A stretch of DNA of 49,849 nt from Bacilli bacterium (GTDB lineage: Bacteria > Bacillota_I > Bacilli_A > RF39 > UBA660). Made by a program: the position numbers and the translations under genes. The notes below the pieces were generated by a model that made no database searches, was not told the origin of the DNA, and saw nothing but the letters and a program-made list of their open reading frames with translations. The first letter of the stretch is position 1; every line of letters begins with the position of its first letter. The stretch spans positions 1 to 49,849 of the forward strand of contig JAEEMF010000001.1 in NCBI GenBank assembly GCA_016283075.1. The letters run 5' to 3'. Below, one piece after another: positions 21,878 to 37,392 of the stretch.

Positions 21878-22459
21878 TTATTTACCTAATTTATTTTCTT
21901 TATACCAGTTAATGAAGTCAAATTTAGCATTACCCCAGAACTTTGATTCATAATCTCTATCTATCTCTCTTAATTCACTAAGTGTCTTAGTTTCTCCATC
22001 AGGAATATAGAAGTGATCATGCCATCTTCCTAAGTTTCCTTTTGACTCATATGATATAGTTCCTGTACTAGAACCAGTAAATACTACTGGGTCTTTACCA
22101 GGTTCACAATAAGCAAATGTATCTTCAAGTCTAGCTTTTCTATTAGTTTCATTTTTAATAAGTTCTAAGAAGTGTTCTACTCCTATCTGCTTATCAAAAT
22201 ATGCATTATATGGTCCTGGAAGACCTCCTAGACAATCTAAATACAAGCCTGAATCTGATTTAACACATGGTCTACCTAGTTTCTCAGCCATATATTTTAC
22301 TGAGAACTCTACTACCTCGCCACATGTTTTTGCTTGTATTTCAGGTATTTCAAAATCTGGAGTAGCTATTTCAATATCAATACCATTCTTTTCAAATAGT
22401 CTTTTAGCTTCTTCAAATTTACCTTTATTAGTAGTTAAGTATATTACTTTATTGTTCAT
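21878..22459 (-). CDS. Ham1/ITPase-family NTP pyrophosphatase, divergent (no SHR motif), copy 1
   Basis: TTNKGK, EIQ, DSGLYLDCLGGLPGPY and IPDGETKTLSE; the canonical SHR is replaced by FWGN. Confidence 0.85.
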   Translation of the reverse strand: MNNKVIYLTTNKGKFEEAKRLFEKNGIDIEIATPDFEIPEIQAKTCGEVVEFSVKYMAEKLGRPCVKSDSGLYLDCLGGLPGPYNAYFDKQIGVEHFLELIKNETNRKARLEDTFAYCEPGKDPVVFTGSSTGTISYESKGNLGRWHDHFYIPDGETKTLSELREIDRDYESKFWGNAKFDFINWYKENKLGK

Positions 22460-23301: not shown

Positions 23302-24138
23302 TTATAAATTTAAAATATCTATAATATATTTTATTGAATAAATAGTATCTTCAAACATAACATTCTTAGCATATTTAAGTTTCTTTTGGTAGTTACTAAA
23401 TAAATCATTTAATATGGTACTATCTTTAATTATTTCATAAATTTCATTTAAATAATCTTTATTTAAAATAGAATTTCGATGTTTAAATGTTCTTTCTATT
23501 GCTTTAATTAATGTTTCAGTATTAATACTTTCCTTGTGTTCATTTATTAGCATATAAATGTCATAAAAGTCTTTTGCTCTAGTTGTAGATATATTTTTAC
23601 TAATAATACTTTCAAATTTTTCTGCAATTATCGTTTCAATAGTATATGCCATAATATTAATTCTTTTATCTTCAAAAATAGATTTATATTTATATATTAT
23701 TTCTCTTGGAGTAATTATGTCTCCTGTTGATACTTCTATAAAGAAGTGAGTTTTAATTCTATCAAACTCAGCATATACATTAATTCTATAACCACCATAT
23801 TCATCTTCTAATCTAATATCATTGATGCTATCAATTCTAAATGATATTCCATCATTAGTATCTATAGATAATATTTCATTAAAGATAGTTAGAAGAGATT
23901 CTGTATTTAATGAAATACCTTTTAAAGTGGCATCTATATCCTTAGTAGTACGCATATCACATCCAATAATAGATGAAAGAAGCACACCACCTTTAAGGAT
24001 AATATTATCTCTATATTTGCTTTTTTCAAGTCTCATTAATACATGTTCAAAAAAATACATTTGATGAAGATGTAATGATAAATCATTACTACCATTAGCT
24101 TTATTTTTTATAATTGCATTTAATTTGTCACTATTCAT
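23302..24138 (-). CDS. AbiEii-family nucleotidyltransferase toxin (type IV TA)
   Basis: ILKGGVL...RTTKDID, TGDIITP, ETIIAEK and TRAKDFYD motifs; translationally coupled to the upstream antitoxin. Confidence 0.92.
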   Translation of the reverse strand: MNSDKLNAIIKNKANGSNDLSLHLHQMYFFEHVLMRLEKSKYRDNIILKGGVLLSSIIGCDMRTTKDIDATLKGISLNTESLLTIFNEILSIDTNDGISFRIDSINDIRLEDEYGGYRINVYAEFDRIKTHFFIEVSTGDIITPREIIYKYKSIFEDKRINIMAYTIETIIAEKFESIISKNISTTRAKDFYDIYMLINEHKESINTETLIKAIERTFKHRNSILNKDYLNEIYEIIKDSTILNDLFSNYQKKLKYAKNVMFEDTIYSIKYIIDILNL

Positions 24139-24731
24139 TAAAAGATAACCTGCATAATATCTACAACTTCTTTTTCAATATTTAATTTTTTAGAATATTT
24201 TGTAAGTTTTAAAAGATCTTTATCTTTTCTTTTAGCATACCATTTCAATGCCTTAGTATAAATTTCTTTATCCATATGATTTTTATCTTTAATAATGTCA
24301 CAAATAGTTCTTTCTAAATCATAACATTTAATATTCATTCCAAATGGAGATTTGATAGTTTCCACACCTAGATAAAATATTTTATTATCAACATAATGAA
24401 GTAATACTGAATCAATATTTTGAAGCGATCCACCATATCCACGAGGAACAGTTACATCAAAATAAAGTGGAGTTCTGTCTGATAAATCATGTAAAAATAA
24501 TGATGTAGTATAAGAAAAAATAGCATTCTTACTTTTAGAAAGAATTTTATAATACTCATCAGTAATTATATTAGGAAGTGAATAAAATCCAGTTGATATT
24601 CTTTCTAACAATTCGCCATCACACAATCTTTTTAAAGCCATTTTATTTAAACCATTATCTACTACTTCTTTTGTAGTAATATAACCGCCGTTTTTTTGAA
24701 CTAACTCCAAAATTTTTTCTAAATCAGTCAT
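24138..24731 (-). CDS. AbiEi-family antitoxin (type IV TA)
   Basis: N-terminal wHTH (GYITT...LERISTGFY), FSYTTSLFLHDLSDRTP and YDLERTICD. Confidence 0.92.
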   Translation of the reverse strand: MTDLEKILELVQKNGGYITTKEVVDNGLNKMALKRLCDGELLERISTGFYSLPNIITDEYYKILSKSKNAIFSYTTSLFLHDLSDRTPLYFDVTVPRGYGGSLQNIDSVLLHYVDNKIFYLGVETIKSPFGMNIKCYDLERTICDIIKDKNHMDKEIYTKALKWYAKRKDKDLLKLTKYSKKLNIEKEVVDIMQVIF

Positions 24732-24807
24732 AAAAACGCCTCCTTAATTATAATAAGTTCTTTCTTACTGAAATTGTAACATATATTAATACTAATGAAA
24801 ATACTTT

Positions 24808-24857
24808 TTGTTACTTTTTTAATTATTTTCAATATATTTTAAGTTATAAAGTAACAA
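24808..24857. promoter_or_regulatory. Inverted repeat upstream of abiEi, putative AbiEi operator
   Basis: TTGTTACTTT (24808-24817) and AAAGTAACAA (24848-24857); AbiEi proteins are known to autoregulate via promoter inverted repeats. Confidence 0.5.
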
Positions 24858-24865
24858 TTTTATAT

Positions 24866-24892
24866 AAAAAGAAGACTTAGTAAACTAAGTCT
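24866..24892 (-). terminator. Terminator of the lysR...rsmB/F operon
   Basis: AGACTTAGT-aa-ACTAAGTCT followed by a U-rich tract on the minus strand. Confidence 0.7.
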
Positions 24893-24895
24893 ATA

Positions 24896-25753
24896 TTATT
24901 TAATCTTTTCTAATTTAGATATAAAGAATCCTTCAAACTCTTTAGTAGGAAGTACTGTTATAGTACCCTCTAACGAGTTTGGAAGTGCTGGTAAATTTTT
25001 TGAATCAAGTGGAACTAGTTTAACATTTCCTTTAGAAAGTACTTTCTTTATTTGCTCTTCATTTTCTATAGGAAGAATAGAACATGTTGAATAAAGAAGA
25101 GTTCCTCCTACTTTTAAAAGTTCTATAGCTTTATTTAGAAGTATTTCTTGTACTTTAACTGATCTAGTAATTAATTCTTCATCAAACGTATCTAAATCAC
25201 TTATATTTAAAGTGCCTGTTCCAGAACAAGGAGCATCCAAAAGAATCTTATCAAATTTAAAAAAAGGATCTATATTTCTAGCATCTTCATTTAATACTGT
25301 AACTCTTTTTACTCCAAGTTTATCTAGATTATATTTTAATCTATCACATCTTATTTTATTCTTCTCAATAGCAGTAATTTTAACATCTTTTAAAGACGCT
25401 ATTAAAGAAGTTTTACCACCAGGAGCTGCTGTCATATCAAGAACTGAATCATTATCATTTAAGTCCATATATAAAGGTGGTAACATACTAGATATACTTT
25501 GAATATATATCTTTCCTTCGTTATATATATCTAGCGTTCTTATATCATAGTTATCTTTTAAGATAATTGCATTATCATAAATATTCGATATTTCATAAGT
25601 GATACTATTACTATTCAATATAGAAGTAATTTCCTCTATATTAGACTTCAAAGTATTGACTCTAAAAGTAGTATATCTATCTTTAGAATATCCATCAATT
25701 ATTTTATTATATTCATCTTTAGTATAAATACTACTAAGTCTATCTTTTAACAT
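24896..25753 (-). CDS. RsmB/RsmF/NOP2-family RNA m5C methyltransferase
   Basis: FRVNTLK, LDMTAAPGGKT, LLDAPCSGTG, YSTCS and EGFF motifs. Confidence 0.92.
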   Translation of the reverse strand: MLKDRLSSIYTKDEYNKIIDGYSKDRYTTFRVNTLKSNIEEITSILNSNSITYEISNIYDNAIILKDNYDIRTLDIYNEGKIYIQSISSMLPPLYMDLNDNDSVLDMTAAPGGKTSLIASLKDVKITAIEKNKIRCDRLKYNLDKLGVKRVTVLNEDARNIDPFFKFDKILLDAPCSGTGTLNISDLDTFDEELITRSVKVQEILLNKAIELLKVGGTLLYSTCSILPIENEEQIKKVLSKGNVKLVPLDSKNLPALPNSLEGTITVLPTKEFEGFFISKLEKIK

Positions 25754-25769
25754 AATATCACCTACTTCA

Positions 25770-26201
25770 TTATATCATATCTAAATACATACTTACTGCT
25801 TTTATTTGATAAGGAAGAAAAAGTTTAGAAAGTATTTCTTCTTTACTTACTTTAACAAGAGAAGACTCTTGTTCTAAAGGAGTATATTCTTTATCAGAAA
25901 CACTTACTACATAAAAATGTGCAAGAGAATTTACATAATGACCATGATTAGTTACCCAGTAACAGTCTATTGTTATTAAAGGAGTAGTACTTTCTATTTC
26001 AAGTCCTGCTTCTTCCATAAATTCTCTTTTAAGAGTCTCTATATGAGACTCGCCTTCTTCAATTCCTCCACCTATTAAAGAATAATCATTATTATTAATA
26101 GTTATATAAAAACTATTATTTTTATATACTATTCCAAAACAAGTTTCTCTAAAAAAGTAATCTTTATCTATTTCTTTAATACCAAGAGTTATTTTATCCA
26201 T
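25770..26201 (-). CDS. NUDIX hydrolase
   Basis: Nudix box GGGIEEGESHIETLKREFMEEAG. Confidence 0.92.
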   Translation of the reverse strand: MDKITLGIKEIDKDYFFRETCFGIVYKNNSFYITINNNDYSLIGGGIEEGESHIETLKREFMEEAGLEIESTTPLITIDCYWVTNHGHYVNSLAHFYVVSVSDKEYTPLEQESSLVKVSKEEILSKLFLPYQIKAVSMYLDMI

Positions 26202-26594
26202 TTATTTAAAATACTCCTTTAATTTATCCATAATGTCATATTTATTAAGTTCTTTTACATTTATAAATGTAGGTTCATAGTAGTTAGAATCACTCATTCT
26301 ATCAAGTTCTTCTCCATTTAAAGTGAAATTACCACTTATATACTCACAGTTATAAATGTATTCTACTCTATCTTCTGTTTCATTTGTAAAAGCTAAATCT
26401 TTTACATTTACATCTATATTAAGTTCTTCTTTTAATTCTCTTTTTAATCCGTCTATTACTTCTTCACCAGGATTTATTCCTCCTCCTGGTAAAACATAAT
26501 ATTCTTTAGTAACTCCATCTGTAATCTTTCTTCTAAAGATTACAGCTAAACCTTTATCAGTAATAACAATACCTCTAGCACTAATTCTTTTCAT
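26202..26594 (-). CDS. NUDIX hydrolase
   Basis: Nudix box PGGGINPGEEVIDGLKRELKEELN. Confidence 0.92.
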   Translation of the reverse strand: MKRISARGIVITDKGLAVIFRRKITDGVTKEYYVLPGGGINPGEEVIDGLKRELKEELNIDVNVKDLAFTNETEDRVEYIYNCEYISGNFTLNGEELDRMSDSNYYEPTFINVKELNKYDIMDKLKEYFK

Positions 26595-27294
26595 TATTAT
26601 TTCTCCTTAATCTAAAATCTAATATATTTCTTAGCACTTTATTTGCTGATGATTCTTCTATTGTTCTATCATCACGATACTTAATTTCAGTAAAATTATC
26701 GACTTTAATTGTTGGAATAGATGCACCTATAGCAGCATCGACACCTCTTTTAGAATCTTCAATACTAATACATTTATAAGGTTTTAATTGAAGTTTATCT
26801 AAAGCAATTAAATATTCTGCTGGATTAGGTTTTAATAATTCATGAGGAACATCATCCCTAGCAATAATAATATCAAATGTATTATGTAAATCATATAAAT
26901 CTAACAACTTTGAAATATACATTCTTCTACAAGTAGTAACTAAAGCAACAATTAAACCCGAATCCTTTATTTCTTTAATAAGGTTAAAATTGTCTTTTGC
27001 CTCCTCTTCTCTAATTACACTTTCAAAAAATGGCATATAATTTGCATATAATTTTTGATATATAGTATCATCTGATACATCTCGAATACTTTGATATTCA
27101 TTTCTTTTGAAGTCAAGTAATTTAGCATTTTGTTCTAATTCATACTTTTTATATTCATCTTTAGATATAACTACATTATATTCTTTAAGCAGAATATCTT
27201 TATAAGCCTCAAAAAACGCTTTTTCACTATTGATTAGCGTACCATCTAAATCAAGTAAAAGCGCTTTTATATTATCTATATTTATTTTATTCAT
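26581..27294 (-). CDS. HAD-superfamily (subfamily IA) phosphatase
   Basis: DLDGTLINSE (motif I), VTT (II), KPNP (III), IEDSKRG (IV). Confidence 0.92.
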   Translation of the reverse strand: MNKINIDNIKALLLDLDGTLINSEKAFFEAYKDILLKEYNVVISKDEYKKYELEQNAKLLDFKRNEYQSIRDVSDDTIYQKLYANYMPFFESVIREEEAKDNFNLIKEIKDSGLIVALVTTCRRMYISKLLDLYDLHNTFDIIIARDDVPHELLKPNPAEYLIALDKLQLKPYKCISIEDSKRGVDAAIGASIPTIKVDNFTEIKYRDDRTIEESSANKVLRNILDFRLRRNNNEKN

Positions 27295-28333
27295 TATTTT
27301 CTTTTACAAGAAGGATACTAATAAGTTCTTTAAGGCTTTGTGAATGAAATATTATAGAGTTCTTTAGATCAATGCTATTCTTTTTAATGATTTGAAGCAT
27401 ACTATCTTCACCAGCAATTATTAAATTGTCAATTGAAATATTTAATTTACCAAAGAAATGTTTAAAGAATACCTCATTTAATTTGGTAATATATGTAACA
27501 TTACATTTATTTCTATTTAATAATTCTGCAACAACAAGTAATTCTTTGTTATCAAATACTAAATTATCTACAAAATCATCAACAATAGGTTCTAATACAG
27601 AATATAAGCTTTTATTCTTGCGATATTCGCCCCATTTTATATTTGAACCTGCTGCTTTACTTATCTCAGCTTTATATTTTTTAAAGAATTCTTTTTCATA
27701 TTTAACTAAATAATCATCTATATCAACATATATACTCTCTGTTTCATTTTTAGAAGAGTATTTATCATTAATATTTTTAGCAACTACATCTCTATAAGGT
27801 CTAGTTTCTTCTTTCAAGCCTAAATCTTTGAAATTATTAATAAAAGTTCTTAGAGCATAATTAAGTTCTTCTCTTTTAGCATCTAATTCAGAAATAATTT
27901 CAAATTCAACAAAACCACCTATATTAGGTAATTTATCTATCATAATACTATATTTGTATTGGCCATCTTGCTTTGTAAAAGTAAGACGTTCTTTCTCTAC
28001 AATAACATAACTATAGAAACCAAGTGATGTAAATAAAGAAACAAAGTTTTCATATTCATCAATATTTGCACTTATATTATTTTCTAATTTGCAATATTGA
28101 CCAAGAAGTGAACTAGATTTACCTTTAAATGTAACTTCCATTCTAGAATTATTTGTTTTTCTAATTCTTAAACATGTTCTATTTTCAATAAATTCACTAT
28201 TAATGTCTGTAAAATATTCATCACTTTCAACTTTGGAATCAAGTTCAGCAAAGCCAAGTTCTTTTATTCTTTCAATTAGTTTCTTAGAATCTAAGCAGTA
28301 ATACTTTTCTTCTGTTTCAATTTTAATAAGCAT
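27287..28333 (-). CDS. CYTH (CyaB-like triphosphate tunnel) domain fused to a degenerate HAD-like domain
   Basis: ETEEKY, DEYF, LRIR, TFKG, KER and FVEFE CYTH motifs in the first ~180 aa; the C-terminal half begins IYVDIDDYL. Confidence 0.8.
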   Translation of the reverse strand: MLIKIETEEKYYCLDSKKLIERIKELGFAELDSKVESDEYFTDINSEFIENRTCLRIRKTNNSRMEVTFKGKSSSLLGQYCKLENNISANIDEYENFVSLFTSLGFYSYVIVEKERLTFTKQDGQYKYSIMIDKLPNIGGFVEFEIISELDAKREELNYALRTFINNFKDLGLKEETRPYRDVVAKNINDKYSSKNETESIYVDIDDYLVKYEKEFFKKYKAEISKAAGSNIKWGEYRKNKSLYSVLEPIVDDFVDNLVFDNKELLVVAELLNRNKCNVTYITKLNEVFFKHFFGKLNISIDNLIIAGEDSMLQIIKKNSIDLKNSIIFHSQSLKELISILLVKENNE

Positions 28334-28336
28334 AAA

Positions 28337-29371
28337 TTAATCCTCCTTCTTTATGTATGCAACCATATATTTACCTAGAATATTAGTAAACATATCATAT
28401 TTAATGTCATATTCTTTAAAAGATGAAGAAACTACGCTTTTAAATTGCATCTCATTTAAGAAGCATTCTCCGTTGTCTTTTAAAAATTTTCTATATAACC
28501 ATTTATTTAATAATTTTGGAAGACCAAGATGTTCTCTTGGATCAATAATTTCTATAATAACAATTCCAGTTTTAGAAATATTATCCATAAGATTTAGTAA
28601 ATTATTGATACCTATTAAACTATTCATATGATGAAGTGTATTTTTACAAAATACAACATCATAACTATTATTTTTAATATTATTGTATTCAACATTGTCG
28701 TTAGTATAAACAACATTTTTATATGGAGTTTGAGATAGATATTTTATGCAAACATCATTACCAACTACTGTCTTATAACCATGTTTTGAAGCAACTTCAA
28801 ATAAATCTGTACTATCACCACATGATATATCAATTATAGATTCTTTGTTTGGTAAAATATCATAAATCATTTTTTTAAATTCAGCTTTTTTTCTTTTCTT
28901 TTCAGTAAGTATATATCTCTTTATATATTTTTCATGAAATTTATATCTATTAATATATTTTAAAGATGTTTCAATCTCTGTATTAACTGTTGAAGATATA
29001 TATGAAAGATTAAAATTATCTATATGAAATTTAACAAGCTTTTTATATTTATCAGGGATTTGATTAATTGGAACTCTGTTAAGTTCAGATGATTCCACAT
29101 TCCCTACACGAAATGCAAAAACAAGAGTATCATTGCAAAAACAAACAGGATAGTAATTCTTTATCTTTAATTTATAAGTATTTGATATTTCATCAACAAG
29201 ATTAAGTATAGAATTAGTCTTATTATATTCAGGGAACTTATCTTTCTCTAAGTAATAATAATATTTATCATCAAAAACTAAAACAAGTAGTTTTTTATTA
29301 GAAACAGGCAATTTTAAAACTTTAAGATTATAATGTTTCTTATAAAATCTAGTTAAATCATTAGTTTTCAT
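28337..29371 (-). CDS. Class I SAM-dependent methyltransferase with an uncharacterised N-terminal domain
   Basis: IIDISCGD (motif I variant), VVGND and YDVVFCKNTLHHM. Confidence 0.78.
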   Translation of the reverse strand: MKTNDLTRFYKKHYNLKVLKLPVSNKKLLVLVFDDKYYYYLEKDKFPEYNKTNSILNLVDEISNTYKLKIKNYYPVCFCNDTLVFAFRVGNVESSELNRVPINQIPDKYKKLVKFHIDNFNLSYISSTVNTEIETSLKYINRYKFHEKYIKRYILTEKKRKKAEFKKMIYDILPNKESIIDISCGDSTDLFEVASKHGYKTVVGNDVCIKYLSQTPYKNVVYTNDNVEYNNIKNNSYDVVFCKNTLHHMNSLIGINNLLNLMDNISKTGIVIIEIIDPREHLGLPKLLNKWLYRKFLKDNGECFLNEMQFKSVVSSSFKEYDIKYDMFTNILGKYMVAYIKKED

Positions 29372-30248
29372 TTAGTATTTCTTCCTCTATAAATAAATTT
29401 GCAGCCTTAGTAAGATTATTGTTTATCTTAACAATATTTATTTCCATTTTAGGTAAATTAACATCTATTTCCAATTTCTTAATTATTCCAGCATCTACTA
29501 AATAACCTACAGCATCCTCTACTACATATCCTACTCCTAAATTTCTTCTTACGGAGTCAATAATTAACTCTTCAGTACCGAATTCAAGAGTAATATTAAC
29601 ATTAAGAGAGTTCTCGTCAAATATCTTATTTATATTTTTTCTAAGAGAACTTCGAGATATAGGTAAAATAATATCTTCATTTTCTAAATCTTTTATAGTA
29701 GCGATATCATTATTATTTTTTGTTGAAGCTATAAAACAAGTATTAAGAGAGCAAACCGGTGTAACAGAAATATTGTTATATATAGTATCAATCGGAGATG
29801 AATCAATGACAAAATCTAATTTTCTTGCTTCTAATTGTTCCATCATTTGATTAGTAGACATATCAATTAATTCAATTTTAATTTTAGGATGTCTAGCTTT
29901 AAAACTATCAACTTTATTCATAAGATAATTTCTAACAATATGTGATTGAACACCTATAACCAATGTGCTATCTTCAACATCATTAACAGCCATCAAAGCT
30001 CTATTACATGAATAAAGCAGATCATTGGCCTCTTTTAAATAATTATATAATATTTCACCCGATTGTGTTAAAACAATACCTTTGTTTGCTCGAAAAAATA
30101 ATTTGACATTTAAATCTTCTTCAAGTTTTGACATACTCTTACTAATAGCAGGTTGTGAAACAAATAATTTATTTGATGCTTCCAAAAAACTTTTAGAACT
30201 TGCCACCTCATAAAATATTTTTAAAGAATTAAAGTTAATGTTATTCAT
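29361..30248 (-). CDS. LysR-family transcriptional regulator
   Basis: SFLEASNKLFVSQPAISKSMSKLEEDLNVKLFFR HTH, a substrate-binding domain and typical length (295 aa). Confidence 0.95.
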   Translation of the reverse strand: MNNINFNSLKIFYEVASSKSFLEASNKLFVSQPAISKSMSKLEEDLNVKLFFRANKGIVLTQSGEILYNYLKEANDLLYSCNRALMAVNDVEDSTLVIGVQSHIVRNYLMNKVDSFKARHPKIKIELIDMSTNQMMEQLEARKLDFVIDSSPIDTIYNNISVTPVCSLNTCFIASTKNNNDIATIKDLENEDIILPISRSSLRKNINKIFDENSLNVNITLEFGTEELIIDSVRRNLGVGYVVEDAVGYLVDAGIIKKLEIDVNLPKMEINIVKINNNLTKAANLFIEEEILNEN

Positions 30249-30271
30249 ACATATCCCCCACTTTAAAAAGT

Positions 30272-30300
30272 ATTATAATTTTTATTTGTTATAATGTCAA
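30272..30300 (-). promoter_or_regulatory. Consensus sigma-A promoter of the lysR operon overlapped by an inverted repeat
   Basis: TTGACA (30295-30300)-N17-TATAAT (30272-30277); the ATTATAA-N10-TTATAAT dyad spans the spacer. Confidence 0.8.
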
Positions 30301-30372
30301 ATAATATTTTTTTATATTGTTATAACTTTTAGGAATAATAGGCTACAAAATAAATAAAAGGTAATTATCCTT

Positions 30373-30933
30373 TTATTTATTGTTTTTCCCTAGCAAATAT
30401 TTTGCAATGTCATCATAAGCACTTGTATTCCATAACTTAAATCTTTCACTATCTGGAAAATGCGCCATGGTTTTATCATGACCTTCAGGTATAAAAATCG
30501 GATCAATTCTAAGCCCATATTTTCCACTTTTTCTTTTGGCAATAGAGCCTGGTGTAATGCAAGTAAATACTACTGGTTCTTTTCCATATTCACAATAAGC
30601 AAATGCTTCTTTATAATACGCAGTTCTATTTGTCTTGCCTTTCATTAATTTTAAAATACCTTCAGTACCAATTTGATTCATAACATCATGTGTGTATGGA
30701 CCTGGGAACCCTCCTAGTGCTTCTATAAAGAATCCAGTATCATTTTTTAAAACAGAACACTTTAATTTATCACTTGCTTCCTTAGCTGAATGCATTGCTA
30801 TTTCCTCTACTGAATCAGATTGGATTTCAATTGTATCCATTTTTTCATTGTCAACATCAATACCATATGGATTTAAAAACTGTCTTGCACTAATTAATTT
30901 TTTCATATTACCTGTAACTAAAATTACTTTCAT
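30373..30933 (-). CDS. Ham1/ITPase-family NTP pyrophosphatase, divergent (no SHR motif), copy 2
   Basis: VTGNMKK, EIQSDS, NDTGFFIEALGGFPGPY and DPIFIPEGHDKTMA; SHR is replaced by WNT. Confidence 0.87.
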   Translation of the reverse strand: MKVILVTGNMKKLISARQFLNPYGIDVDNEKMDTIEIQSDSVEEIAMHSAKEASDKLKCSVLKNDTGFFIEALGGFPGPYTHDVMNQIGTEGILKLMKGKTNRTAYYKEAFAYCEYGKEPVVFTCITPGSIAKRKSGKYGLRIDPIFIPEGHDKTMAHFPDSERFKLWNTSAYDDIAKYLLGKNNK

Positions 30934-30942
30934 TTTTTCCTC

Positions 30943-31548
30943 CTAATTATAAAAATTTTTCATAAAGTCCTTATTTTTTATTAATTTTAAACTTTTTGTT
31001 TTACCACTTTCGCTGCTTTCATAAATATCCATAAAATCACAATAAAGTTTTTCCATATTGTCTGTATAAGATATTAATAAATAATCGTATAAATCGATGC
31101 TTTTTTTAGTTTGTTCGATTCCTAATGAATATCGTTGTATCCCCCTATTGCCCATTCTTCTCAAAACTTCTTCTTTATTTGGTGGCAATATATATATCAA
31201 TGATGAATCAGGTCTAATATTTTTTAAAGAAACAGCACCTTGATACCCCATATTAAACAATATTTGTTTATCTTTTAATAATTCCAATGCTTTTTTCAAG
31301 GTCCCATAATAATTCCCATCATGTCTTACATATTGTATTAATTCATCATTATTTACATATTCGAAAAACTTTTCTTGCGTAATAAATTCAGTATTTCCAA
31401 CTTCTCCAATTCTACGTGGACGAGTAGTTATACCTGGCGCTTCCTCAAAAATTTTATTTTTCTTTTTTAAATACTCAATTAATTCTGTTTTACCAGCACC
31501 TGAAGGCCCTGATAAAACTATTGGTGAATAGCCTTCACATATAAGCAT
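30943..31548 (-). CDS. Guanylate kinase-like nucleoside monophosphate kinase, divergent
   Basis: SGPSGAGKT P-loop, TTRPRR-GE, GNYYGT, QGA and IYILPP; base-contact residues altered. Start placed at ATG 31548 after GGTGA. Confidence 0.85.
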   Translation of the reverse strand: MLICEGYSPIVLSGPSGAGKTELIEYLKKKNKIFEEAPGITTRPRRIGEVGNTEFITQEKFFEYVNNDELIQYVRHDGNYYGTLKKALELLKDKQILFNMGYQGAVSLKNIRPDSSLIYILPPNKEEVLRRMGNRGIQRYSLGIEQTKKSIDLYDYLLISYTDNMEKLYCDFMDIYESSESGKTKSLKLIKNKDFMKNFYN

Positions 31549-31549
31549 A

Positions 31550-32092
31550 TTAATCACCAAAACTTTCTAAAGAATCACGTATATCTTCAACCCAAAAGAA
31601 ATGAACCCAACTATCTTTTTTTGACTCATAACCTGCATTAAATGTCATAATTGGATTATCGTTTTGAAAACTTTCATCAACAACCAATGCATAGAGATCG
31701 CTTGTATCTATATTCTTTTCTTTAAGATGTTTAATAACTCCCGATGATGTTTTACCTTTATATAATATATCATCAAAAATGATGAATTTTGTTTTCCCTG
31801 GTTCTATATATTCACTAATCAATTTAAATTCTCCATAGTCATGTGGAGTATCACTATTAGTCATTTTACATTGCATAAATGAAATATTTCTAAAATTTAG
31901 TAATTGTGAAACAGTTACTGCTAATGGCAATCCACCTCTTGCTATACCTAAAAAACCCAATGTAGGATCGTTAAGATCATATTTGTTTTTTATATCGTCT
32001 GCTATTTTTTTGCAGGCATTCATATACATATCATAATTAAAAATATTATCATCATTACATAATATTTTATCATTAATAAAAATTTTTTTCAT
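31550..32092 (-). CDS. Type I phosphoribosyltransferase, Gpt/Hpt1-like, divergent
   Basis: GIARGGLP, PRPP loop IIFDDILYKGKT and C-terminal WVHFFW. Confidence 0.85.
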   Translation of the reverse strand: MKKIFINDKILCNDDNIFNYDMYMNACKKIADDIKNKYDLNDPTLGFLGIARGGLPLAVTVSQLLNFRNISFMQCKMTNSDTPHDYGEFKLISEYIEPGKTKFIIFDDILYKGKTSSGVIKHLKEKNIDTSDLYALVVDESFQNDNPIMTFNAGYESKKDSWVHFFWVEDIRDSLESFGD

Positions 32093-32766
32093 TATATCTC
32101 CTCGTTCTTTTTAAATTTTGATACATAATATAAAAATGGGGTATCTAGAAAAGCTATTATTATTTTGAAAATAATAGTAGTAATAGCCATTTCAATAACA
32201 TTTGCGAAAGGAATAACACCTAAATAAGCAATAACTACAAATATAATTGTATCTGATAATTGACTTACTATAGTGCTACCGTTATTACTAACCCATAATC
32301 TGTTATATTTATTTTTTAATATTTTATACATTCTAGCATCAATAAACTGACTTAGAATACAATTTATAAGACTTGCAATTGTTATTCTAGGCAAATAATT
32401 AAATACTATTTTTAATGATTCATTTGTCGTATCAACAGCACTCGGAACATATTGAAGAAACATACTCATCGATAAAGTAAATATAAGAAGTGTTAAAAAA
32501 CTAAAAATTATTGCTTTTCTCGCTTCTTTTTCACCATATATTTCACTAAGAATATCAGTTGTTAAAAAAATTGCACCATATGAAATATTACCTAGTGAAG
32601 TCGTCAAGCCAAACATATCTACTATTTTAATTGCTTGTATGTTACAAATTATAGTTGAAACACACATCCAAACAAATAATCCAACCCTTCCATATTTTTT
32701 ATAACAAGCACATGTAATTGAAAATGTGCCCAGCAAATAAATTGCTGAAATAAATAAATTAACCAT
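32092..32766 (-). CDS. yhhQ: Queuosine precursor transporter (YhhQ/QPTR, Vut_1 family)
   Basis: CNIQAIK, GNISYGAIFLTTDILSEIYG, PRITIAS, SQFID, NNGSTIVSQLSDT and KIIIAFLDTPFLY motifs; AAGGAGG RBS. Confidence 0.9.
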   Translation of the reverse strand: MVNLFISAIYLLGTFSITCACYKKYGRVGLFVWMCVSTIICNIQAIKIVDMFGLTTSLGNISYGAIFLTTDILSEIYGEKEARKAIIFSFLTLLIFTLSMSMFLQYVPSAVDTTNESLKIVFNYLPRITIASLINCILSQFIDARMYKILKNKYNRLWVSNNGSTIVSQLSDTIIFVVIAYLGVIPFANVIEMAITTIIFKIIIAFLDTPFLYYVSKFKKNEEI

Positions 32767-32772
32767 ACTTTT

Positions 32773-32824
32773 TCCTCCTTATGCGTTTATTATATCTCGC
32801 AGATTAAAGAGTTAATCATACCGG
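32773..32824 (-). promoter_or_regulatory. Candidate SD-proximal pseudoknot or riboswitch-like element
   Basis: GAUUAA-CUCU-UUAAUC hairpin, then UGCG...CGCA hairpin directly before AAGGAGG; the CUCU loop can pair with the SD. It does not match canonical preQ1 consensus by eye. Confidence 0.3.
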
Positions 32825-32871
32825 TTTTTTATAATTATAATAAGAAATAGTTATTAAAATAATTTAATAAG

Positions 32872-32916
32872 AAAAAATAAAAAAATTGCATATCAACGAA
32901 TTTGACACACAATTTT
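32872..32916 (-). terminator. Intrinsic terminator inside the long leader upstream of yhhQ
   Basis: AAAAUUGUGUGUCAA-auucg-UUGAUAUGCAAUUUU: a 15-bp stem with 3 G-U pairs that form only on the minus strand, followed by UUUAUUUUUU. Confidence 0.7.
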
Positions 32917-33194
32917 ATAAAAATCAAATATAAATATTTGGCATACACAGATAAATAAAAAGTTATACCAAATACCAATTTTTTTAAATAAACATATAGA
33001 TAATTAAACGGATTATAATATAATATTTTTTAATCAAAAACTTTTATAATTGTATAAGTATTTTTATATATTAAAATGATTTATACTAATATAATTAATT
33101 ATAATATCAATTTTAAAATATACATTATATTTATATCATTTCTATTATAAAAACAAGACATAATTTTTTTGTAAATAATAGATAAAATAATTTT

Positions 33195-33665
33195 TTATTT
33201 ATCTTTATTGATAATATGTTTAAATTCTGATGAATTAATCATATCTTTAACACATGCTGGTTGAATAGATAAATCTTTAACTTTATCTAAATCATACCAA
33301 GATTCATGTTCACCTGGGTGATCTAATACTTCGATATTATCAAAGTTTTTAAATGCTTTACCATTAACTTCATATAAGAATAAGTATTCATGATAATTTT
33401 TATTATCAAGAGAGAAGAAATTCTCAACAAGTCCTATTAACTTAGCATCTTCTTTAGAAACTTTAGTACCAGTTTCTTCTTCAATTTCTCTTATAAGTGC
33501 AGATAGACTATCTTCACCTGCTTCACATCTACCTCCAACTGGTACTAGATAATCAGTAAGATCATTTGCTTCTAATAAAACTTTACCTTCCTTTTTAATA
33601 AATGCACAGCATCGTACATTTAGTTTGTAGTCTCCTACCATTATACTTAAATCATTTTTTGCCAT
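33195..33665 (-). CDS. NUDIX hydrolase
   Basis: Nudix box GGRCEAGEDSLSALIREIEEETG and the ENFF...YHEY subfamily pattern. Confidence 0.92.
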   Translation of the reverse strand: MAKNDLSIMVGDYKLNVRCCAFIKKEGKVLLEANDLTDYLVPVGGRCEAGEDSLSALIREIEEETGTKVSKEDAKLIGLVENFFSLDNKNYHEYLFLYEVNGKAFKNFDNIEVLDHPGEHESWYDLDKVKDLSIQPACVKDMINSSEFKHIINKDK

Positions 33666-33695
33666 ACTAAAATCACCTTCCTATTTATTATAACA

Positions 33696-34181
33696 TTATA
33701 CTTGGTATAATTTATTAATGTTTTCTAATTCTTTATTTACTTTTTCTACTTCTTTTCTATCTCCTTCGATAGCTATTACATACATTTTTGGTTTAGAATA
33801 ATCATCTATTTCAAATGTAACATTGTTTTTCTTATAAACATATCTTGTACGTTTATTATCAGCACACAGTTTAAATTCTAAAGTGTCCAACATAGAATTA
33901 ATGAACTTTCTATTTGTATCATCTACTTTAATAGATAATGACTCTAATGAAATATTTAAATTTTCTTCTCTACTAGTAATATTTTTAAAATCAAAAGTTG
34001 TTTTTCTTCTTTCATTTACTACTGTAGTAGTAAGTCTTGCTATTACATTAGAAAGTTTTTCATTGTCATAAACCTTCCTATTTTGTAAGACAGCTGGTTC
34101 CTTTCTATAACCATTTTCCTCACAATAAGTGATATAAGGTTTTAAATTACTAACCTTATAACTATACTCGTATTCTTCCAT
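33696..34181 (-). CDS. CYTH domain protein
   Basis: EYEYSY, ARLT, FDFK, RTRYVY, FEIDDY and IAIEG, a CYTH-like motif order. Confidence 0.75.
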   Translation of the reverse strand: MEEYEYSYKVSNLKPYITYCEENGYRKEPAVLQNRKVYDNEKLSNVIARLTTTVVNERRKTTFDFKNITSREENLNISLESLSIKVDDTNRKFINSMLDTLEFKLCADNKRTRYVYKKNNVTFEIDDYSKPKMYVIAIEGDRKEVEKVNKELENINKLYQV

Positions 34182-34210
34182 AAAATTCCTCCCTTCTAAT
34201 TTTATAGAAC

Positions 34211-34239
34211 AAAAAAAGTATAGGAAAAAAACCTATACT
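34211..34239 (-). terminator. Terminator of rplU-prp-rpmA
   Basis: AGTATAGG/CCTATACT stem with a U7 tract on the minus strand. Confidence 0.75.
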
Positions 34240-34525
34240 ATTTTTCTGGATATACGCTTACTTGCTTTCTATCTTTTCCAACACGTTCAAATTTAACATA
34301 ACCAGATACTTTTGCATATACTGTATCATCTGATCCAATACCACAGTTAACACCTGGATAAATTTTTGTTCCACGTTGACGATATATAATAGATCCACCA
34401 GTAACAAATTCACCATCAGCAGCCTTTGCTCCTAATCTTTTAGCAATAGAGTCACGACCGTTTTTAGTTGAACCTTGTCCTTTTTTGTGGGCAAATAATT
34501 GAATATTTAACTCTAAAAACTTCAT
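34238..34525 (-). CDS. rpmA: 50S ribosomal protein L27 with Prp-cleaved N-terminal extension
   Basis: [26 protein letters not shown]...RQRGT; ATG 34525 after AGGAGGTG. Confidence 0.98.
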
Positions 34526-34537
34526 TGAGGACACCTC

Positions 34538-34843
34538 CTATATAATATTTATTTTAATGTTATTTTTATATTGCTCTTTTAATTCTGTTAATAAATCTAA
34601 CATATTATTAATAAGCAAGTCGATTACATTATCATGTAAATTAATAGTTATTTCTAAATCATCATCTTGAACATAACTAATTGCATCTTTGTTATATTTT
34701 AGTATTGCATTAACGCTTGTTATAACAATACTAGATGCTGCAGCACATACTATATCTTTACCATAATCATCATATCCTGCATGACCTGACATAGTAATTT
34801 TATTAATAGTGCTATCTTTTTTACTAATATTTACTTTTATCAT
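34538..34843 (-). CDS. prp: Ribosomal-processing cysteine protease Prp
   Basis: SGHAGY...GKDIVCAAAS; located between rplU and rpmA. Confidence 0.96.
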   Translation of the reverse strand: MIKVNISKKDSTINKITMSGHAGYDDYGKDIVCAAASSIVITSVNAILKYNKDAISYVQDDDLEITINLHDNVIDLLINNMLDLLTELKEQYKNNIKINII

Positions 34844-34846
34844 AAA

Positions 34847-35143
34847 TTATTTAATAGATGTAATTTCAATTTTAGTATATGGTTGACGATGACCTTGAGT
34901 TCTATGATAGTTTTTCTTTTGGTTGTATTTAAAGATTTTAATTTTTTTAGATTTACCATTTTTTAAAACTTTTGCTTTAACTTGAGCACCACTAACATAT
35001 GGGCGTCCAACAACACCGTTAGCCATTAAAACTTTATCGAAAACAACTTCTGAATCAGCTTCAGCATTTAATTTTTCTACATATAATACTGTACCAACTT
35101 CAGCAGTATATTGTTTTCCTCCTGTTTCGAATATTGCTGTCAT
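34847..35143 (-). CDS. rplU: 50S ribosomal protein L21
   Basis: [12 protein letters not shown]...GHRQPYT; true start ATG 35143 after AGGAGG (the ORF-track extension runs through the leader). Confidence 0.98.
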
Positions 35144-35164
35144 TTTTATTCCTCCTATTCTCCA

Positions 35165-35232
35165 AGACTCGCCATTAAGGTGCATATTTGCTTTAAACCT
35201 TTTCTGCGCGGTTGTAGAGTAAGGCTCTACAC
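35165..35232 (-). ncRNA. L21 ribosomal protein leader
   Basis: GUAGAG-cctta-CUCUAAC-type hairpin (GTAGAG/CTCTAC), then CAACCGCGCAG...AAGGU...ACCUU...UGGCGAGUCU, matching the Firmicute L21 leader pattern and position. Confidence 0.8.
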
Positions 35233-35239
35233 GCAAACA

Positions 35240-35269
35240 ATTATACAACAATAAATCCTTTATTGTCAA
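35240..35269 (-). promoter_or_regulatory. Sigma-A promoter of the rplU operon
   Basis: TTGACA-N18-TATAAT directly upstream of the L21 leader. Confidence 0.8.
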
Positions 35270-35285
35270 CGGTTTTTATATAAAA

Positions 35286-36167
35286 TTACACTAATTTAAA
35301 CTCTCTTGAAATAATCCTCTCATCAGAGCAATATTTAATGACATAATCATTATTTTGCCTACAAATAATAATACCTACGGTCTTATTTTCAAAAGGAGTT
35401 TTCATATTCATATCAATGTAGTTCATATAAGTCATTATTTGGCCTGTATGTTCTTTCTTAAGTTCAGTTACTTTTAACTCCACTACAACGTAACATTTGT
35501 ATTTAATATTATATAAAAGAAGATCAATATAATTATATCTATCACCTATTTTAATTGGATATTCACTTCTTATATAAGTAAAACCATCCCCTAATTCATC
35601 TAAAAAGTTTTCTATATCTTCTAATATTATTTTTTTAAGCACTTTCTCTGAAATAAAAGTATAGCTATTACTTTTATTAATTATAATGGGATTCTTTACA
35701 AAATCAATTACATTTGATTCATCCTTATTTATTAAATTATTCTTTGTATTATCAGGTAATCGTTCGTACTCTCTATACTTTATTCTTTCACGTAATTGTC
35801 TTACTGATAAATTATTTAATTCAGAAATTTTTATATAGTACTGGAACTTATTATCGTCGAACCAAAGGATTTCGCAATAATGGCTCCAACTTAATTTGGC
35901 AGACAGTGTCTGCCATTTTTGAAACACTTTATATAGTTGTCTCATATTTCTTAGATTTCTTTGACTATATCCCTTTCCTAACTCTTTAGTTAATCTTATT
36001 GAATACTCTTTAATAATACCTTCTCCATACTTATTACCTGCATCTAATAAAAGTTTACCAACATTATAATAGGTATCCAGATCACTTTTGTTAATAGAAT
36101 AATGTTTAACTTTTCTATTAACTTCATTATTAATTAGTAAATTCTTAATTTCATTATAATAATTCAT
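35286..36167 (-). CDS. YhcG/DUF1016 PD-(D/E)xK nuclease family protein
   Basis: GYSQRNLRNMRQ, LSWSHY, FLDELGDGF, YIDLLLY, VVVELK and GQIMTYMNY. Confidence 0.92.
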   Translation of the reverse strand: MNYYNEIKNLLINNEVNRKVKHYSINKSDLDTYYNVGKLLLDAGNKYGEGIIKEYSIRLTKELGKGYSQRNLRNMRQLYKVFQKWQTLSAKLSWSHYCEILWFDDNKFQYYIKISELNNLSVRQLRERIKYREYERLPDNTKNNLINKDESNVIDFVKNPIIINKSNSYTFISEKVLKKIILEDIENFLDELGDGFTYIRSEYPIKIGDRYNYIDLLLYNIKYKCYVVVELKVTELKKEHTGQIMTYMNYIDMNMKTPFENKTVGIIICRQNNDYVIKYCSDERIISREFKLV

Positions 36168-36179
36168 ACATTACTCCTT

Positions 36180-36866
36180 TCACTTAATTATATTATTTTC
36201 ATAAAAACTATAGTATTTATCTTTGCCAATAATAATGTGATCTTCTACTGGAATATTAAATAGTTTACCTAGTTTAACAAGATTAGAAGTAGAATTTAAA
36301 TCTTCTTTACTTGGAAGAACATTACCGCTAGGATGGTTATGTATACAAATAATAGATGATGCGTTATATATACAGGCATACTTAAATACATCTCTAGGAT
36401 GTACCATACTGGCATTTACTGTTCCTTTAAATAATAATTTATCTTCGATTAATTTCTTAGAAGAATCTAGATATAATGCATAAAAAACTTCTTGTTTTAA
36501 ATCTTTTACTTTATTTGCATAACTTTCAAATATTATCTTAGGACTACTTAGTTTAGTACTAACTTTAACATCTTCAGACTGATACACTCTTCTTCCTAGT
36601 TCCATTGCTGATAATATAGTTACAGCTTTAGATACCCCTACTCCTTTAATAGAAACTAATTCTTTTAAAGTAATATCTTTTAAATTAGATATACTTCCTA
36701 TATATTTAAGAAGCGATAGAGATATATCTTTAACCGAAATACTCTTAGTACCAGTATTAAATAATATAGAAAGAAGTTCATCATTAGACAAACTACTAAC
36801 TCCTAAATTAACGAGTCTTTCTTTAGGTCTATCATTAATAGGAAGATCCTTTATTCTTACGTTCAT
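36180..36866 (-). CDS. radC: RadC (JAB domain) protein
   Basis: RPKERL, LSNDELL, HhH, GTVNASMVHPRDVF, HNHPSG and DHIIIG. Confidence 0.96.
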   Translation of the reverse strand: MNVRIKDLPINDRPKERLVNLGVSSLSNDELLSILFNTGTKSISVKDISLSLLKYIGSISNLKDITLKELVSIKGVGVSKAVTILSAMELGRRVYQSEDVKVSTKLSSPKIIFESYANKVKDLKQEVFYALYLDSSKKLIEDKLLFKGTVNASMVHPRDVFKYACIYNASSIICIHNHPSGNVLPSKEDLNSTSNLVKLGKLFNIPVEDHIIIGKDKYYSFYENNIIK

Positions 36867-36886
36867 TTAATCACCTCATATATAAC

Positions 36887-36913
36887 ATACGAGATTAATA
36901 TGCCAATTTCCTT
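36887..36913 (-). promoter_or_regulatory. Putative alternative-sigma (SigH-like) competence promoter of radC
   Basis: AAGGA-N16-TCGTAT ending about 21 nt before the ATG; shares TTAATCTCGTAT with the comEA promoter. Confidence 0.6.
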
Positions 36914-36942
36914 CAAAAAAAAATAGAATTTATTAAAAAATT

Positions 36943-37392
36943 CTATTTTTTATTATTAAACATATATATTTCTAAAGTATATTTTACTTCATTTGTTATA
37001 TTAGGATTATTTTTAATACTAGAAAGTGGTTCCCACTTATATGAATCATGCTCTGTTAGTATTATATTATTTATATTTTTTACCTTAATTGCAAAATTAT
37101 ACTGACGAGCTTTCTTACCACTGGATGAAAGATAATCAAATGTGTTTATAAAAGAAAGAACACTTTCTACATCAAGATTTGTTTCTTCTTTTACTTCTCT
37201 AATAAGAGCATCATAAATACTTTCGTTAGGTTCTAGATTACCACTTGGTAGTTCGTCTATACCTCCCATAAAATCATCTGACTTTCTAGTAAGTACTAGT
37301 ACTTTATCGTCATTTACTATTACAGCTCCTACAACATTTTTGATAATACCAACATCTTTTGATTTATTAAGTAATAAATCATAGAAATTCAT
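36943..37392 (-). CDS. NUDIX hydrolase (MutT-like)
   Basis: ELPSGNLEPNESIYDALIREVKEETNL and EHDSYKW; ATG 37392 after GGGGAGG. Confidence 0.9.
   Translation of the reverse strand: MNFYDLLLNKSKDVGIIKNVVGAVIVNDDKVLVLTRKSDDFMGGIDELPSGNLEPNESIYDALIREVKEETNLDVESVLSFINTFDYLSSSGKKARQYNFAIKVKNINNIILTEHDSYKWEPLSSIKNNPNITNEVKYTLEIYMFNNKK

Follow-up and report, generated by a model that had tools for sequence, protein, structure and literature searches.

An accessory operon joining a YhhQ-type permease to three divergent nucleotide enzymes in a small-genome gut Bacilli lineage

The operon and its four products

We analysed a 49,849-nt stretch of the Bacilli bacterium assembly GCA_016283075.1 (contig JAEEMF010000001.1, positions 1 to 49,849; hereafter the window), in which four minus-strand open reading frames (ORFs) are packed between positions 30373 and 32766. 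They encode a YhhQ/QPTR permease, a type I phosphoribosyltransferase (PRTase), a paralogue of guanylate kinase and a Ham1 pyrophosphatase acting on nucleoside triphosphates (NTPs). In the order of transcription the genes are:

32092..32766, minus strand: YhhQ/QPTR (COG1738, Vut_1) permease, 224 aa, first gene of the operon (Pfam, NCBIfam)
31550..32092, minus strand: Gpt-like type I PRTase of a small subfamily, 180 aa (Pfam, NCBIfam, hhalign)
30943..31560, minus strand: guanylate-kinase paralogue, 205 aa (Pfam, NCBIfam, alignment with canonical Gmk)
30373..30933, minus strand: NTP pyrophosphatase of the Ham1/inosine triphosphatase (ITPase) family, archaeal-like, 186 aa (Pfam, NCBIfam, alignment)

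A first-pass annotation made from the sequence alone had described four abutting or overlapping genes here, and the ORFs together with Pfam and NCBIfam matches bore this out. The permease and PRTase genes overlap by 1 nt, the PRTase and kinase genes overlap by 11 nt (or abut, if the second ATG starts the kinase), and 9 nt separate the kinase from Ham1. All four products exceeded the Pfam gathering scores: Vut_1 (PF02592) at 145 bits vs 27.2, Pribosyltran (PF00156) at 31.6 vs 26.3, Guanylate_kin at 70.2 and Ham1p_like at 112.7, which places the second product among the type I PRTases and the fourth in the Ham1 family. The permease also scored far above the cut-off of the QPTR/YhhQ model TIGR00697 (178.4 vs 50.95 bits) and is thus a member of that family, but it fell below the cut-off of the E. 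coli-type equivalog NF008406 (65.7 vs 252 bits). The three enzymes, in contrast, lay under every NCBIfam equivalog cut-off. The PRTase reached 27.1 bits vs 150 for hpt (TIGR01203) and 25.3 vs 138 for Gpt/Xpt (NF006613), the kinase 96.7 vs 160.45 for guanylate kinase (TIGR03263), and Ham1 124.6 vs 145.35 for RdgB/Ham1 (TIGR00042) and 168.1 vs 203 for NF011396. PADLOC gave no match to any of the four proteins.

To determine where the unit begins and ends, we inspected the DNA on both sides of it:

32767..33194, minus strand: AT-rich leader/promoter region 5' of yhhQ, 428 nt (Rfam scan: no known riboswitch)
30272..30300, minus strand: perfect sigma-70 consensus, TTGACA-17-TATAAT, 12/12 matches (consensus match only)

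The leader holds several promoter-like sites, although not above the number found in shuffled sequence. The sigma-70 consensus sits in the 124-nt gap between Ham1 and the following LysR gene and probably drives the unit that follows (LysR and what lies beyond it), so that the operon seems to be a separate four-gene unit. To our knowledge, genes for a PRTase, a kinase and a Ham1 protein are not normally found in one operon with a permease. The first-pass annotation had known of no operon with this composition, and we likewise found no published description of the four-gene set in full-text searches of the literature (supplements not covered). The components are of known kinds, and their combination is a new variant.

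Base-contact positions are remodelled in all three enzymes

To examine the PRTase, we searched with a profile of ten close homologues and made a profile-profile alignment with 12 canonical Hpt proteins of the same class. The phosphoribosyl pyrophosphate (PRPP) loop FIIFDDILYKGKT, with its hydrophobic run, two acidic residues and G-x-T, and the pyrophosphate (PPi) loop ARGGLP (RGG) are conserved across the family; the PRPP loop reads DDILYKGKT in the window, within a family pattern [DE]D-I-[IL]-Y-K-G. A Gpt-like C-terminal tryptophan motif (W..FFW) is also conserved. At the base-binding side, Tyr111 aligned to the invariant Asp of Hpt and Asp139 to its invariant Lys (hhalign, 98.3% probability). 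In human HGPRT, Asp137 contacts purine N7 and Lys165 contacts O6 and N7, as listed in Table 2 of PMC2228302. Among the 143 family members of at least 140 residues, Tyr111 occurs with Asp139 in 39 and with another residue in 2, and Phe111 occurs with Asp139 in 5 of 6; Asp111 is mostly accompanied by Lys (14) and seldom by Asp (5), the Asp-with-Lys proteins being distant, canonical-like members. Since Tyr111 and Asp139 co-occur, the Asp-to-Tyr and Lys-to-Asp changes are, as judged from these alignments, a coupled and conserved switch unlike drift. The subfamily is likewise a new variant, and it is small: out of 1.84 billion representatives, the ten-homologue profile retrieved 250 proteins at E ≤ 1e-3, including 21 at E ≤ 1e-30.

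A viral origin of the PRTase was considered and rejected, as viral contigs held no close relative. A looser profile recovered 52 distant phage Gpt-like PRTases, nearly all with the canonical Asp and a few with His, Ser or Gly. One of these contigs (L129:7947-8417) encodes a phage Gpt-like PRTase with the same Tyr-Lys variant of the PRPP loop as the window's enzyme, VDDMIYKGST; there are no que genes nearby and its neighbours are uninformative. The protein atlas entry of one homologue (P0014) listed only generic PRTase clusters, some of them viral, which we note as a lead only, and a protein cluster look-up returned no informative names.

The kinase was compared, as part of a set of 22 distinct kinases from related clusters, with 12 canonical Gmk proteins from relatives. 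The P-loop and the TTRxxR, GE and YYG motifs are kept. An invariant Ser of canonical Gmk is Gly in all 22 cluster kinases, and an invariant Tyr is deleted in all of them. A third position, an invariant Glu, divides the set: it is Gln in the subgroup of the window's kinase (6/6) and stays Glu in the other subgroup (15/16), so the pocket changes are not uniform. We take this Glu to pair with N1 and N2 of guanine, and likewise assume base-binding roles for the other changed residues. The kinase also weakly matched the PhnN model TIGR02322 (17.7 bits).

The Ham1 protein is nearest to the archaeal enzymes MJ0226 and PH1917 and keeps their metal-binding acidic residues. It lacks the SHR stretch, with LWNTSAY where MJ0226 has ISHRKKAF, and has Leu at the position of Phe149 in human ITPA. 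Both features recur in all 12 cluster copies compared, which show W-N/D/S-T/N-S/D/E-A/G-Y in place of SHR and Leu, Met or Trp at the Phe149 position. Passages of PMC9016069 name F149 and Arg178 among the substrate-discriminating residues of ITPA. Collectively, these alignments agree with the first-pass reading that all three enzymes keep their catalytic and phosphate-binding motifs and deviate at base-recognition positions.

The gene order is conserved and the operon is accessory

The conservation of the operon was assessed at 33 related loci, 2 from genomes and 31 from metagenomes. YhhQ lies directly 5' of the PRTase in 31 of the 33, the exceptions being L044, which is differently arranged, and L045, which is short. 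At every locus with sufficient flank (at least ~300 nt downstream of the PRTase) the order YhhQ-PRTase-kinase is kept (27/27), and the neighbourhood search thus showed that the unit is conserved elsewhere. Many loci are near-duplicates: among the 33 there are 25 distinct PRTase sequences, and these collapse into 14 clusters at 80% identity and into 4 at 60%. Flanking genes vary among the loci, and since the order recurs despite differing flanks it is not due to chance.

Close relatives mostly lack the operon. The PRTase was found in none of six congeners (other species of the same genus), and strong matches were confined to the source genome in samples of 201 genomes from the order, 400 from the class and 399 from the phylum. 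When window positions 24000-37000 were compared with the six congeners by blastn, the adjacent rpmA-ysxB-rplU genes and radC matched, whereas ~24000-34190 (~10 kb) gave, at this sensitivity, no match save two short pieces of 65-68% identity that fall within LysR and an RsmB-like gene. This stretch is an accessory island. It contains the operon, a LysR-to-NUDIX unit, the upstream NUDIX and CYTH genes and two genes nearest an AbiE pair.

Sister clusters add nucleotide-modifying enzymes to a shared core

Comparison of the related loci revealed three architectures that share an importer, a PRTase, a nucleoside monophosphate (NMP) kinase and an NTP pyrophosphatase:

Group 1 (window, L010, L011, L017-L021, L025): YhhQ-PRTase-kinase-Ham1 with a LysR regulator
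Group 2 (L022-L043, L046, L090): two GreA-like genes and an HTH-WYL regulator upstream; a FemAB gene and a fusion gene between kinase and Ham1
Group 3 (L091-L095, same bacterial family): HTH-WYL, 323-aa unknown, PRTase, NUDIX, radical S-adenosylmethionine (SAM) protein, thymidylate-kinase (TMK)-like kinase, DegT, YhhQ, HAD-like, NUDIX

In group 2 the fusion joins a thymidylate-kinase-like domain to a SAM methyltransferase (436 aa; L031:7191-9465, L090 and others), and the FemAB gene best matched the FemX alanyltransferase model, at 103 bits vs a cut-off of 500. Locus L090 belongs to the same bacterial family as the source genome. Two conserved ORFs without a family match (331 and 228 aa) lie 3' of Ham1 in these loci. 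The group 3 operon is represented by L095:4871-11649, is also present in L091, L092 and L094, and is partly present in L093. Its radical-SAM protein is MoaA/viperin-like, by a weak match; its TMK-like kinase weakly matched VakA of PADLOC, and its aminotransferase belongs to the DegT/DnrJ/EryC1 family. The group 3 YhhQ is 46-50% identical to the window's and is its orthologue. A radical-SAM enzyme and an aminotransferase set beside NUDIX and phosphatase genes presumably resemble the logic of aminonucleoside biosynthesis. Searches of the PDB by sequence with three unknown sister-cluster proteins gave nothing.

A viperin-type enzyme adjoins the module at three loci. In L011 (2450-4126) and L019 (3439-5130), a single ORF of 558-564 aa joins a viperin-family radical-SAM domain to a full LysR protein directly upstream of the YhhQ operon; this may be a real fusion or the result of a lost stop codon. 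The viperin domain scored 129 bits against NF038283 and 137.5 against the PADLOC pVip model "associated with kinases". Locus L044, a group 2 variant, has a separate pVip gene (133 bits). The window itself holds no viperin gene or remnant detectable by tblastn, and the best viperin-like score in the source genome was 46 bits vs a cut-off of 180.

A partnership in which a kinase supplies substrate to viperin is documented in the preprint 10.1101/2023.09.13.557418, as far as its relevant passages go. Both in animals (CMPK2) and in prokaryotes (pVip kinases), a dedicated NMP kinase is genetically linked to viperin and supplies its NTP, and the association of a pVip-type enzyme with our module in L011, L019 and L044 is similar. 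The supply chain here is longer, however, comprising importer, PRTase and kinase, and includes a pyrophosphatase, and the window has no viperin. The text of the preprint that we draw on makes no mention of a transporter or pyrophosphatase; PRTases were not looked for there. The kinases also differ, the operon's being of the guanylate-kinase type and most viperin-associated ones being related to CMPK2, according to the same passages.

The permease follows the PRTase rather than tgt

The YhhQ/QPTR family is linked to queuosine. In the portions of PMC5372724 and PMC11130926 that bear on transport, all tested members carry preQ0, preQ1 or queuine, although section 2.4 of PMC5372724 describes COG1738 as heterogeneous, with other purines as possible cargo. 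The operon permease is a bona fide member by profile, and the source genome has tgt. In known salvage systems, however, the base passes directly to TGT or via QueF, QueK, QueL and Qng1, with no PRTase, kinase or Ham1, and the operon lacks a riboswitch or que linkage. At the gathering threshold, the Rfam scan of the window had an L21 leader as its sole match, with neither a preQ1 nor a purine riboswitch; under permissive settings the yhhQ leader yielded a single small-RNA match at chance level (E 0.82), and 15 related loci (143 kb) returned one tRNA and no riboswitch.

In a sample of 101 genomes of the same bacterial family (source genome included), tgt was present in 98, vs YhhQ homologues in 21, and so the window's YhhQ is not the general queuosine-precursor importer of the lineage. 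Every YhhQ at least 44% identical to the window's adjoins a PRTase wherever the extent of the contig permits the check. Across the family, YhhQ tracks the PRTase module and not tgt.

The rest of the source genome (G000) was searched for the standard counterparts of the operon enzymes, a check that the first-pass annotation had suggested. The assembly is 1.19 Mb in 85 contigs and 77.7% complete, and absences from it are provisional because it is incomplete. A canonical gmk lies elsewhere (contig G000:C21, 230.4 bits) with the canonical residues kept, and tgt (520 bits) lies on a different contig from the operon, whose YhhQ is the only homologue found in the genome; separate gmk and tgt genes thus exist. 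No other hpt-type PRTase and no SHR-bearing ITPase were found, which is one part of what the first-pass annotation had named as speaking against its reading. Neither hpt, queA, queC, queF nor prs was detected, and the operon's PRTase is the only PF00156 member found; the same holds for genome G202 save one weak match. Since hpt exceeds its cut-off in only 6 of the 101 family genomes, its absence from the source genome does not show that the operon has displaced it. The presence of tgt with none of queA, queC or queF found may be a sign that a late queuosine precursor is salvaged directly.

The source genome has five Ham1-like genes. All of them score under the RdgB cut-off and lack SHR, and the operon type scores best. 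One copy, at G000:C72:8706-9254 beside a histidine phosphatase and a HAD gene, is 91% identical to the operon's; further Ham1-like genes lie at window positions 21878-22459 and on contigs G000:C80 and G000:C36.

A proposed supply line for a guanine-like base

Taken together, these results suggest that the operon is accessory, was acquired horizontally and serves to convert a guanine-like base of the gut environment to nucleotides, a reading to which we assign a probability of roughly one half. The YhhQ-type permease would import the base, and the Gpt-like PRTase would join it to PRPP to form the NMP. The guanylate-kinase paralogue would then make the diphosphate and general kinases the triphosphate, while Ham1 would turn the triphosphate, or unwanted analogues, back to the monophosphate, as a safety valve or as a product-releasing step. 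Gene order, family membership, residue changes, distribution and the make-up of the sister clusters are shown directly; we infer which way the flux runs, which base is used and what Ham1 does. The module would form the constant core of variable clusters in small-genome gut Bacilli. Because sister clusters repeatedly place NTP-modifying enzymes beside this core, it probably feeds and polices its own dedicated nucleotide pool, purine PRTases being mostly absent from this lineage. Group 3, in which NUDIX stands in for Ham1 and a TMK-type kinase for the Gmk-type one, points the same way. The viperin-type and other NTP-modifying enzymes had not been seen in the first-pass annotation, and they shift the likely role towards such a pool. 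The window holds a stripped version that lacks a radical-SAM partner; its core stands alone or may work with the downstream methyltransferase/CYTH/HAD/NUDIX unit. Plain guanine or hypoxanthine is probably not the base, given the altered base-contact residues that the alignments show in each of the three enzymes. A 7-substituted 7-deazaguanine of the preQ1, preQ0 or queuine type would be the leading, unproven candidate.

Several observations weigh against this proposal. The kinase of the other subgroup keeps the presumed guanine-pairing Glu, and group 3 PRTases keep the canonical Asp beside an orthologous YhhQ, which is compatible with an ordinary 6-oxopurine. Of 42 related loci only 3 carry a pVip-type gene, the 6-kb flanks are free of radical-SAM genes at most loci of the FemAB-type subgroup, and the window's operon contains no radical-SAM or other obvious modifying enzyme. 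With no such enzyme here and no viperin in the source genome, the module may in this bacterium be a simple salvage route. As for a 7-deazaguanine base, neither a riboswitch nor a que gene was found near the operon in the 16 regions scanned. No PRPP synthetase was detected in G000 or G202, in the former possibly through an assembly gap; genome G201 has both the cluster and prs. Ham1 is the least firmly attached member of the set. The cluster type occurs in 30 of the 101 family genomes, many of them without the PRTase, and L027, of the FemAB-type subgroup, has YhhQ-PRTase-kinase with no Ham1 within 3.1 kb downstream, the position at which 16 sister loci have it. An NTP pyrophosphatase in an activating operon also looks futile unless it is selective.

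An ordinary purine salvage operon is a possible but rather unlikely alternative. Guanine, hypoxanthine or xanthine would be taken up and converted to GMP and GDP (or IMP/XMP), Ham1 would be the normal cleaner of ITP and XTP, and the oddities would reflect drift in a fast-evolving, AT-rich small genome. The folds and formal reactions are indeed those of canonical salvage and sanitation (Hpt/Gpt, Gmk, RdgB/ITPase), as are the PRPP loop, the P-loop and the metal-binding acidic residues of Ham1. That the source genome yielded no other PF00156 PRTase and no hpt would fit such a role, as would the lack of any Ham1-like gene at the RdgB cut-off or with SHR, the best score of the cluster type among these genes, the Gpt-like tryptophan motif and the canonical Asp of group 3. 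In contrast to the canonical enzymes, however, all three operon enzymes lie under the equivalog cut-offs with changed base-contact positions, and the changes do not resemble drift, given the coupled Tyr/Asp pair of the PRTase and the kinase changes fixed in 22 of 22. All six congeners and nearly all sampled relatives live without the operon, canonical gmk coexists with the paralogue, and the rarity of hpt in the family means that its absence argues nothing.

The first-pass annotation had proposed that a 7-deaza or otherwise modified guanine is activated to nucleotides. This stands in so far as the enzymes are divergent paralogues with altered base pockets, whereas no riboswitch or que gene ties the operon directly to 7-deazaguanines. 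As a stand-alone route from imported preQ0, preQ1 or queuine to nucleotides, we regard it as possible but rather unlikely. In addition to the known cargo of the tested YhhQ proteins, it is favoured by the PRTase, which has lost the N7-contacting Asp that a 7-deaza base could not use and has gained an acidic residue in place of the Hpt Lys near O6/N7; this residue could pair with a cationic 7-aminomethyl group. The altered kinase and Ham1 pockets would fit as well, and the FemAB and methyltransferase enzymes of the sister subgroup could modify a primary amine. There is also a precedent for the chemistry, as type I PRTases of Streptomyces place 7-substituted 7-deazaguanines on PRPP, shown for TubE (tubercidin) and proposed for ToyH (toyocamycin) (PMC6112128). 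Those clusters resemble the operon in their nucleotide-level tailoring, Nudix step and transporter (PMC6112128). They differ in making the base de novo (GCH I, QueD, QueE) and in holding GMP reductase and PurA/PurB-type steps, whereas the operon has an importer and no deazapurine synthesis genes. Against the route stand the lack of any preQ1 riboswitch, que or tgt gene beside the 16 scanned regions, the pairing of a group 3 YhhQ orthologue with a canonical-looking PRTase, and the heterogeneity of COG1738; a bacterium without deazapurine synthesis has no known use for nucleotides of this kind. A fuller version of the same idea is more speculative. A preQ1-, preQ0- or queuine-type base from the gut would be phosphoribosylated and phosphorylated, and the viperin, FemAB/methyltransferase or radical-SAM/aminotransferase enzymes of sister clusters would convert the resulting GTP analogue to antiviral or otherwise bioactive nucleotides, with Ham1 protecting the host polymerases. 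This version seems doubtful to us.

Three further explanations are improbable. The first-pass annotation had offered a backward, detoxifying or recycling route, in which Ham1 converts NTP to NMP, the PRTase turns NMP and PPi into base and PRPP, and YhhQ exports the base. In its favour, Ham1 releases NMP and PPi, the very substrates of a reversed PRTase, and no PRPP synthetase turned up in G000 or G202. PRTase equilibria favour nucleotide formation, however, the kinase has no place in degradation, the characterised YhhQ proteins are importers as far as the sources used here describe them, and the missing prs is weak evidence in an incomplete genome. We found no support for this route and give it hardly any weight. 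It is similarly very unlikely that the kinase is a PhnN-like ribose-1,5-bisphosphate kinase supplying PRPP to the neighbouring PRTase in genomes that lack Prs. The TIGR02322 match, the retention of phosphate-binding with loss of base-side residues and the undetected prs are in its favour, but the guanylate-kinase match is far stronger, the sister subgroup keeps the Glu that we take to pair with guanine, and G201 holds cluster and prs together. Finally, YhhQ could supply tgt with a queuosine precursor, and the three enzymes could be independent house-cleaning functions in an island devoted to nucleotide hygiene. The tgt gene without detected queA, queC or queF and the wealth of NUDIX, CYTH, HAD and Ham1 genes in the window agree with this. 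The overlapping junctions, the order kept in 27 of 27 informative loci despite differing flanks, and the scarcity of YhhQ (21 of 101 genomes) in a family with near-universal tgt make mere neighbourhood a poor explanation.

If the proposed supply line is correct, the module would be a portable means by which a purine-auxotrophic, PRTase-poor bacterium builds a private nucleotide pool from an imported base, and the viperin-kinase partnership would extend to an import-to-triphosphate chain with a built-in pyrophosphatase. The coupled switch defines a small PRTase subfamily whose substrate may be a non-standard purine. This subfamily could serve as a handle on nucleotide analogues of gut bacteria and on whether queuosine precursors have fates beyond tRNA. 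If the enzymes use plain guanine, the finding shrinks to an unusual-looking but ordinary salvage operon.

Flanking genes and other features of the window

The genes on either side of the operon are:

33195..34181, minus strand: NUDIX hydrolase (156 aa) and CYTH-domain protein (161 aa), between rpmA and the operon, directly upstream
29361..30248, minus strand: LysR-family regulator (profile match; alignment with the L011 fusion)
25770..29371, minus strand: overlapping downstream genes for a SAM methyltransferase (344 aa), a protein with an N-terminal CYTH/CyaB-like domain (348 aa), a HAD phosphatase and two NUDIX proteins

The LysR protein probably regulates the cluster. It shares 38% identity with the LysR part of the viperin-LysR fusion encoded 5' of the corresponding four-gene set in L011 and L019. 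The LysR-to-NUDIX genes look like a second unit 3' of the operon. The downstream methyltransferase, CYTH, HAD and NUDIX genes may act on the same nucleotide, an association that is uncertain; the methyltransferase is not detectably the same as that of the kinase-methyltransferase fusion in the sister subgroup. A CYTH gene likewise precedes the viperin-LysR gene in L011. PADLOC matched only generic NUDIX and methyltransferase models in the window flanks.

The island as a whole is rich in nucleotide-handling genes: besides the operon, which includes a Ham1 gene, it has three NUDIX, two CYTH, a HAD and a methyltransferase gene. A second Ham1 gene of the window (21878-22459) lies just beyond the stretch searched by blastn. 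At the island edge, window positions 23302-24731 encode an AbiEii nucleotidyltransferase toxin and an AbiEi antitoxin, a type IV toxin-antitoxin pair of the abortive-infection kind. The ribosomal protein L21 leader (RF00559, 47.1 bits; 35155-35223) lies upstream of rplU and is ordinary.

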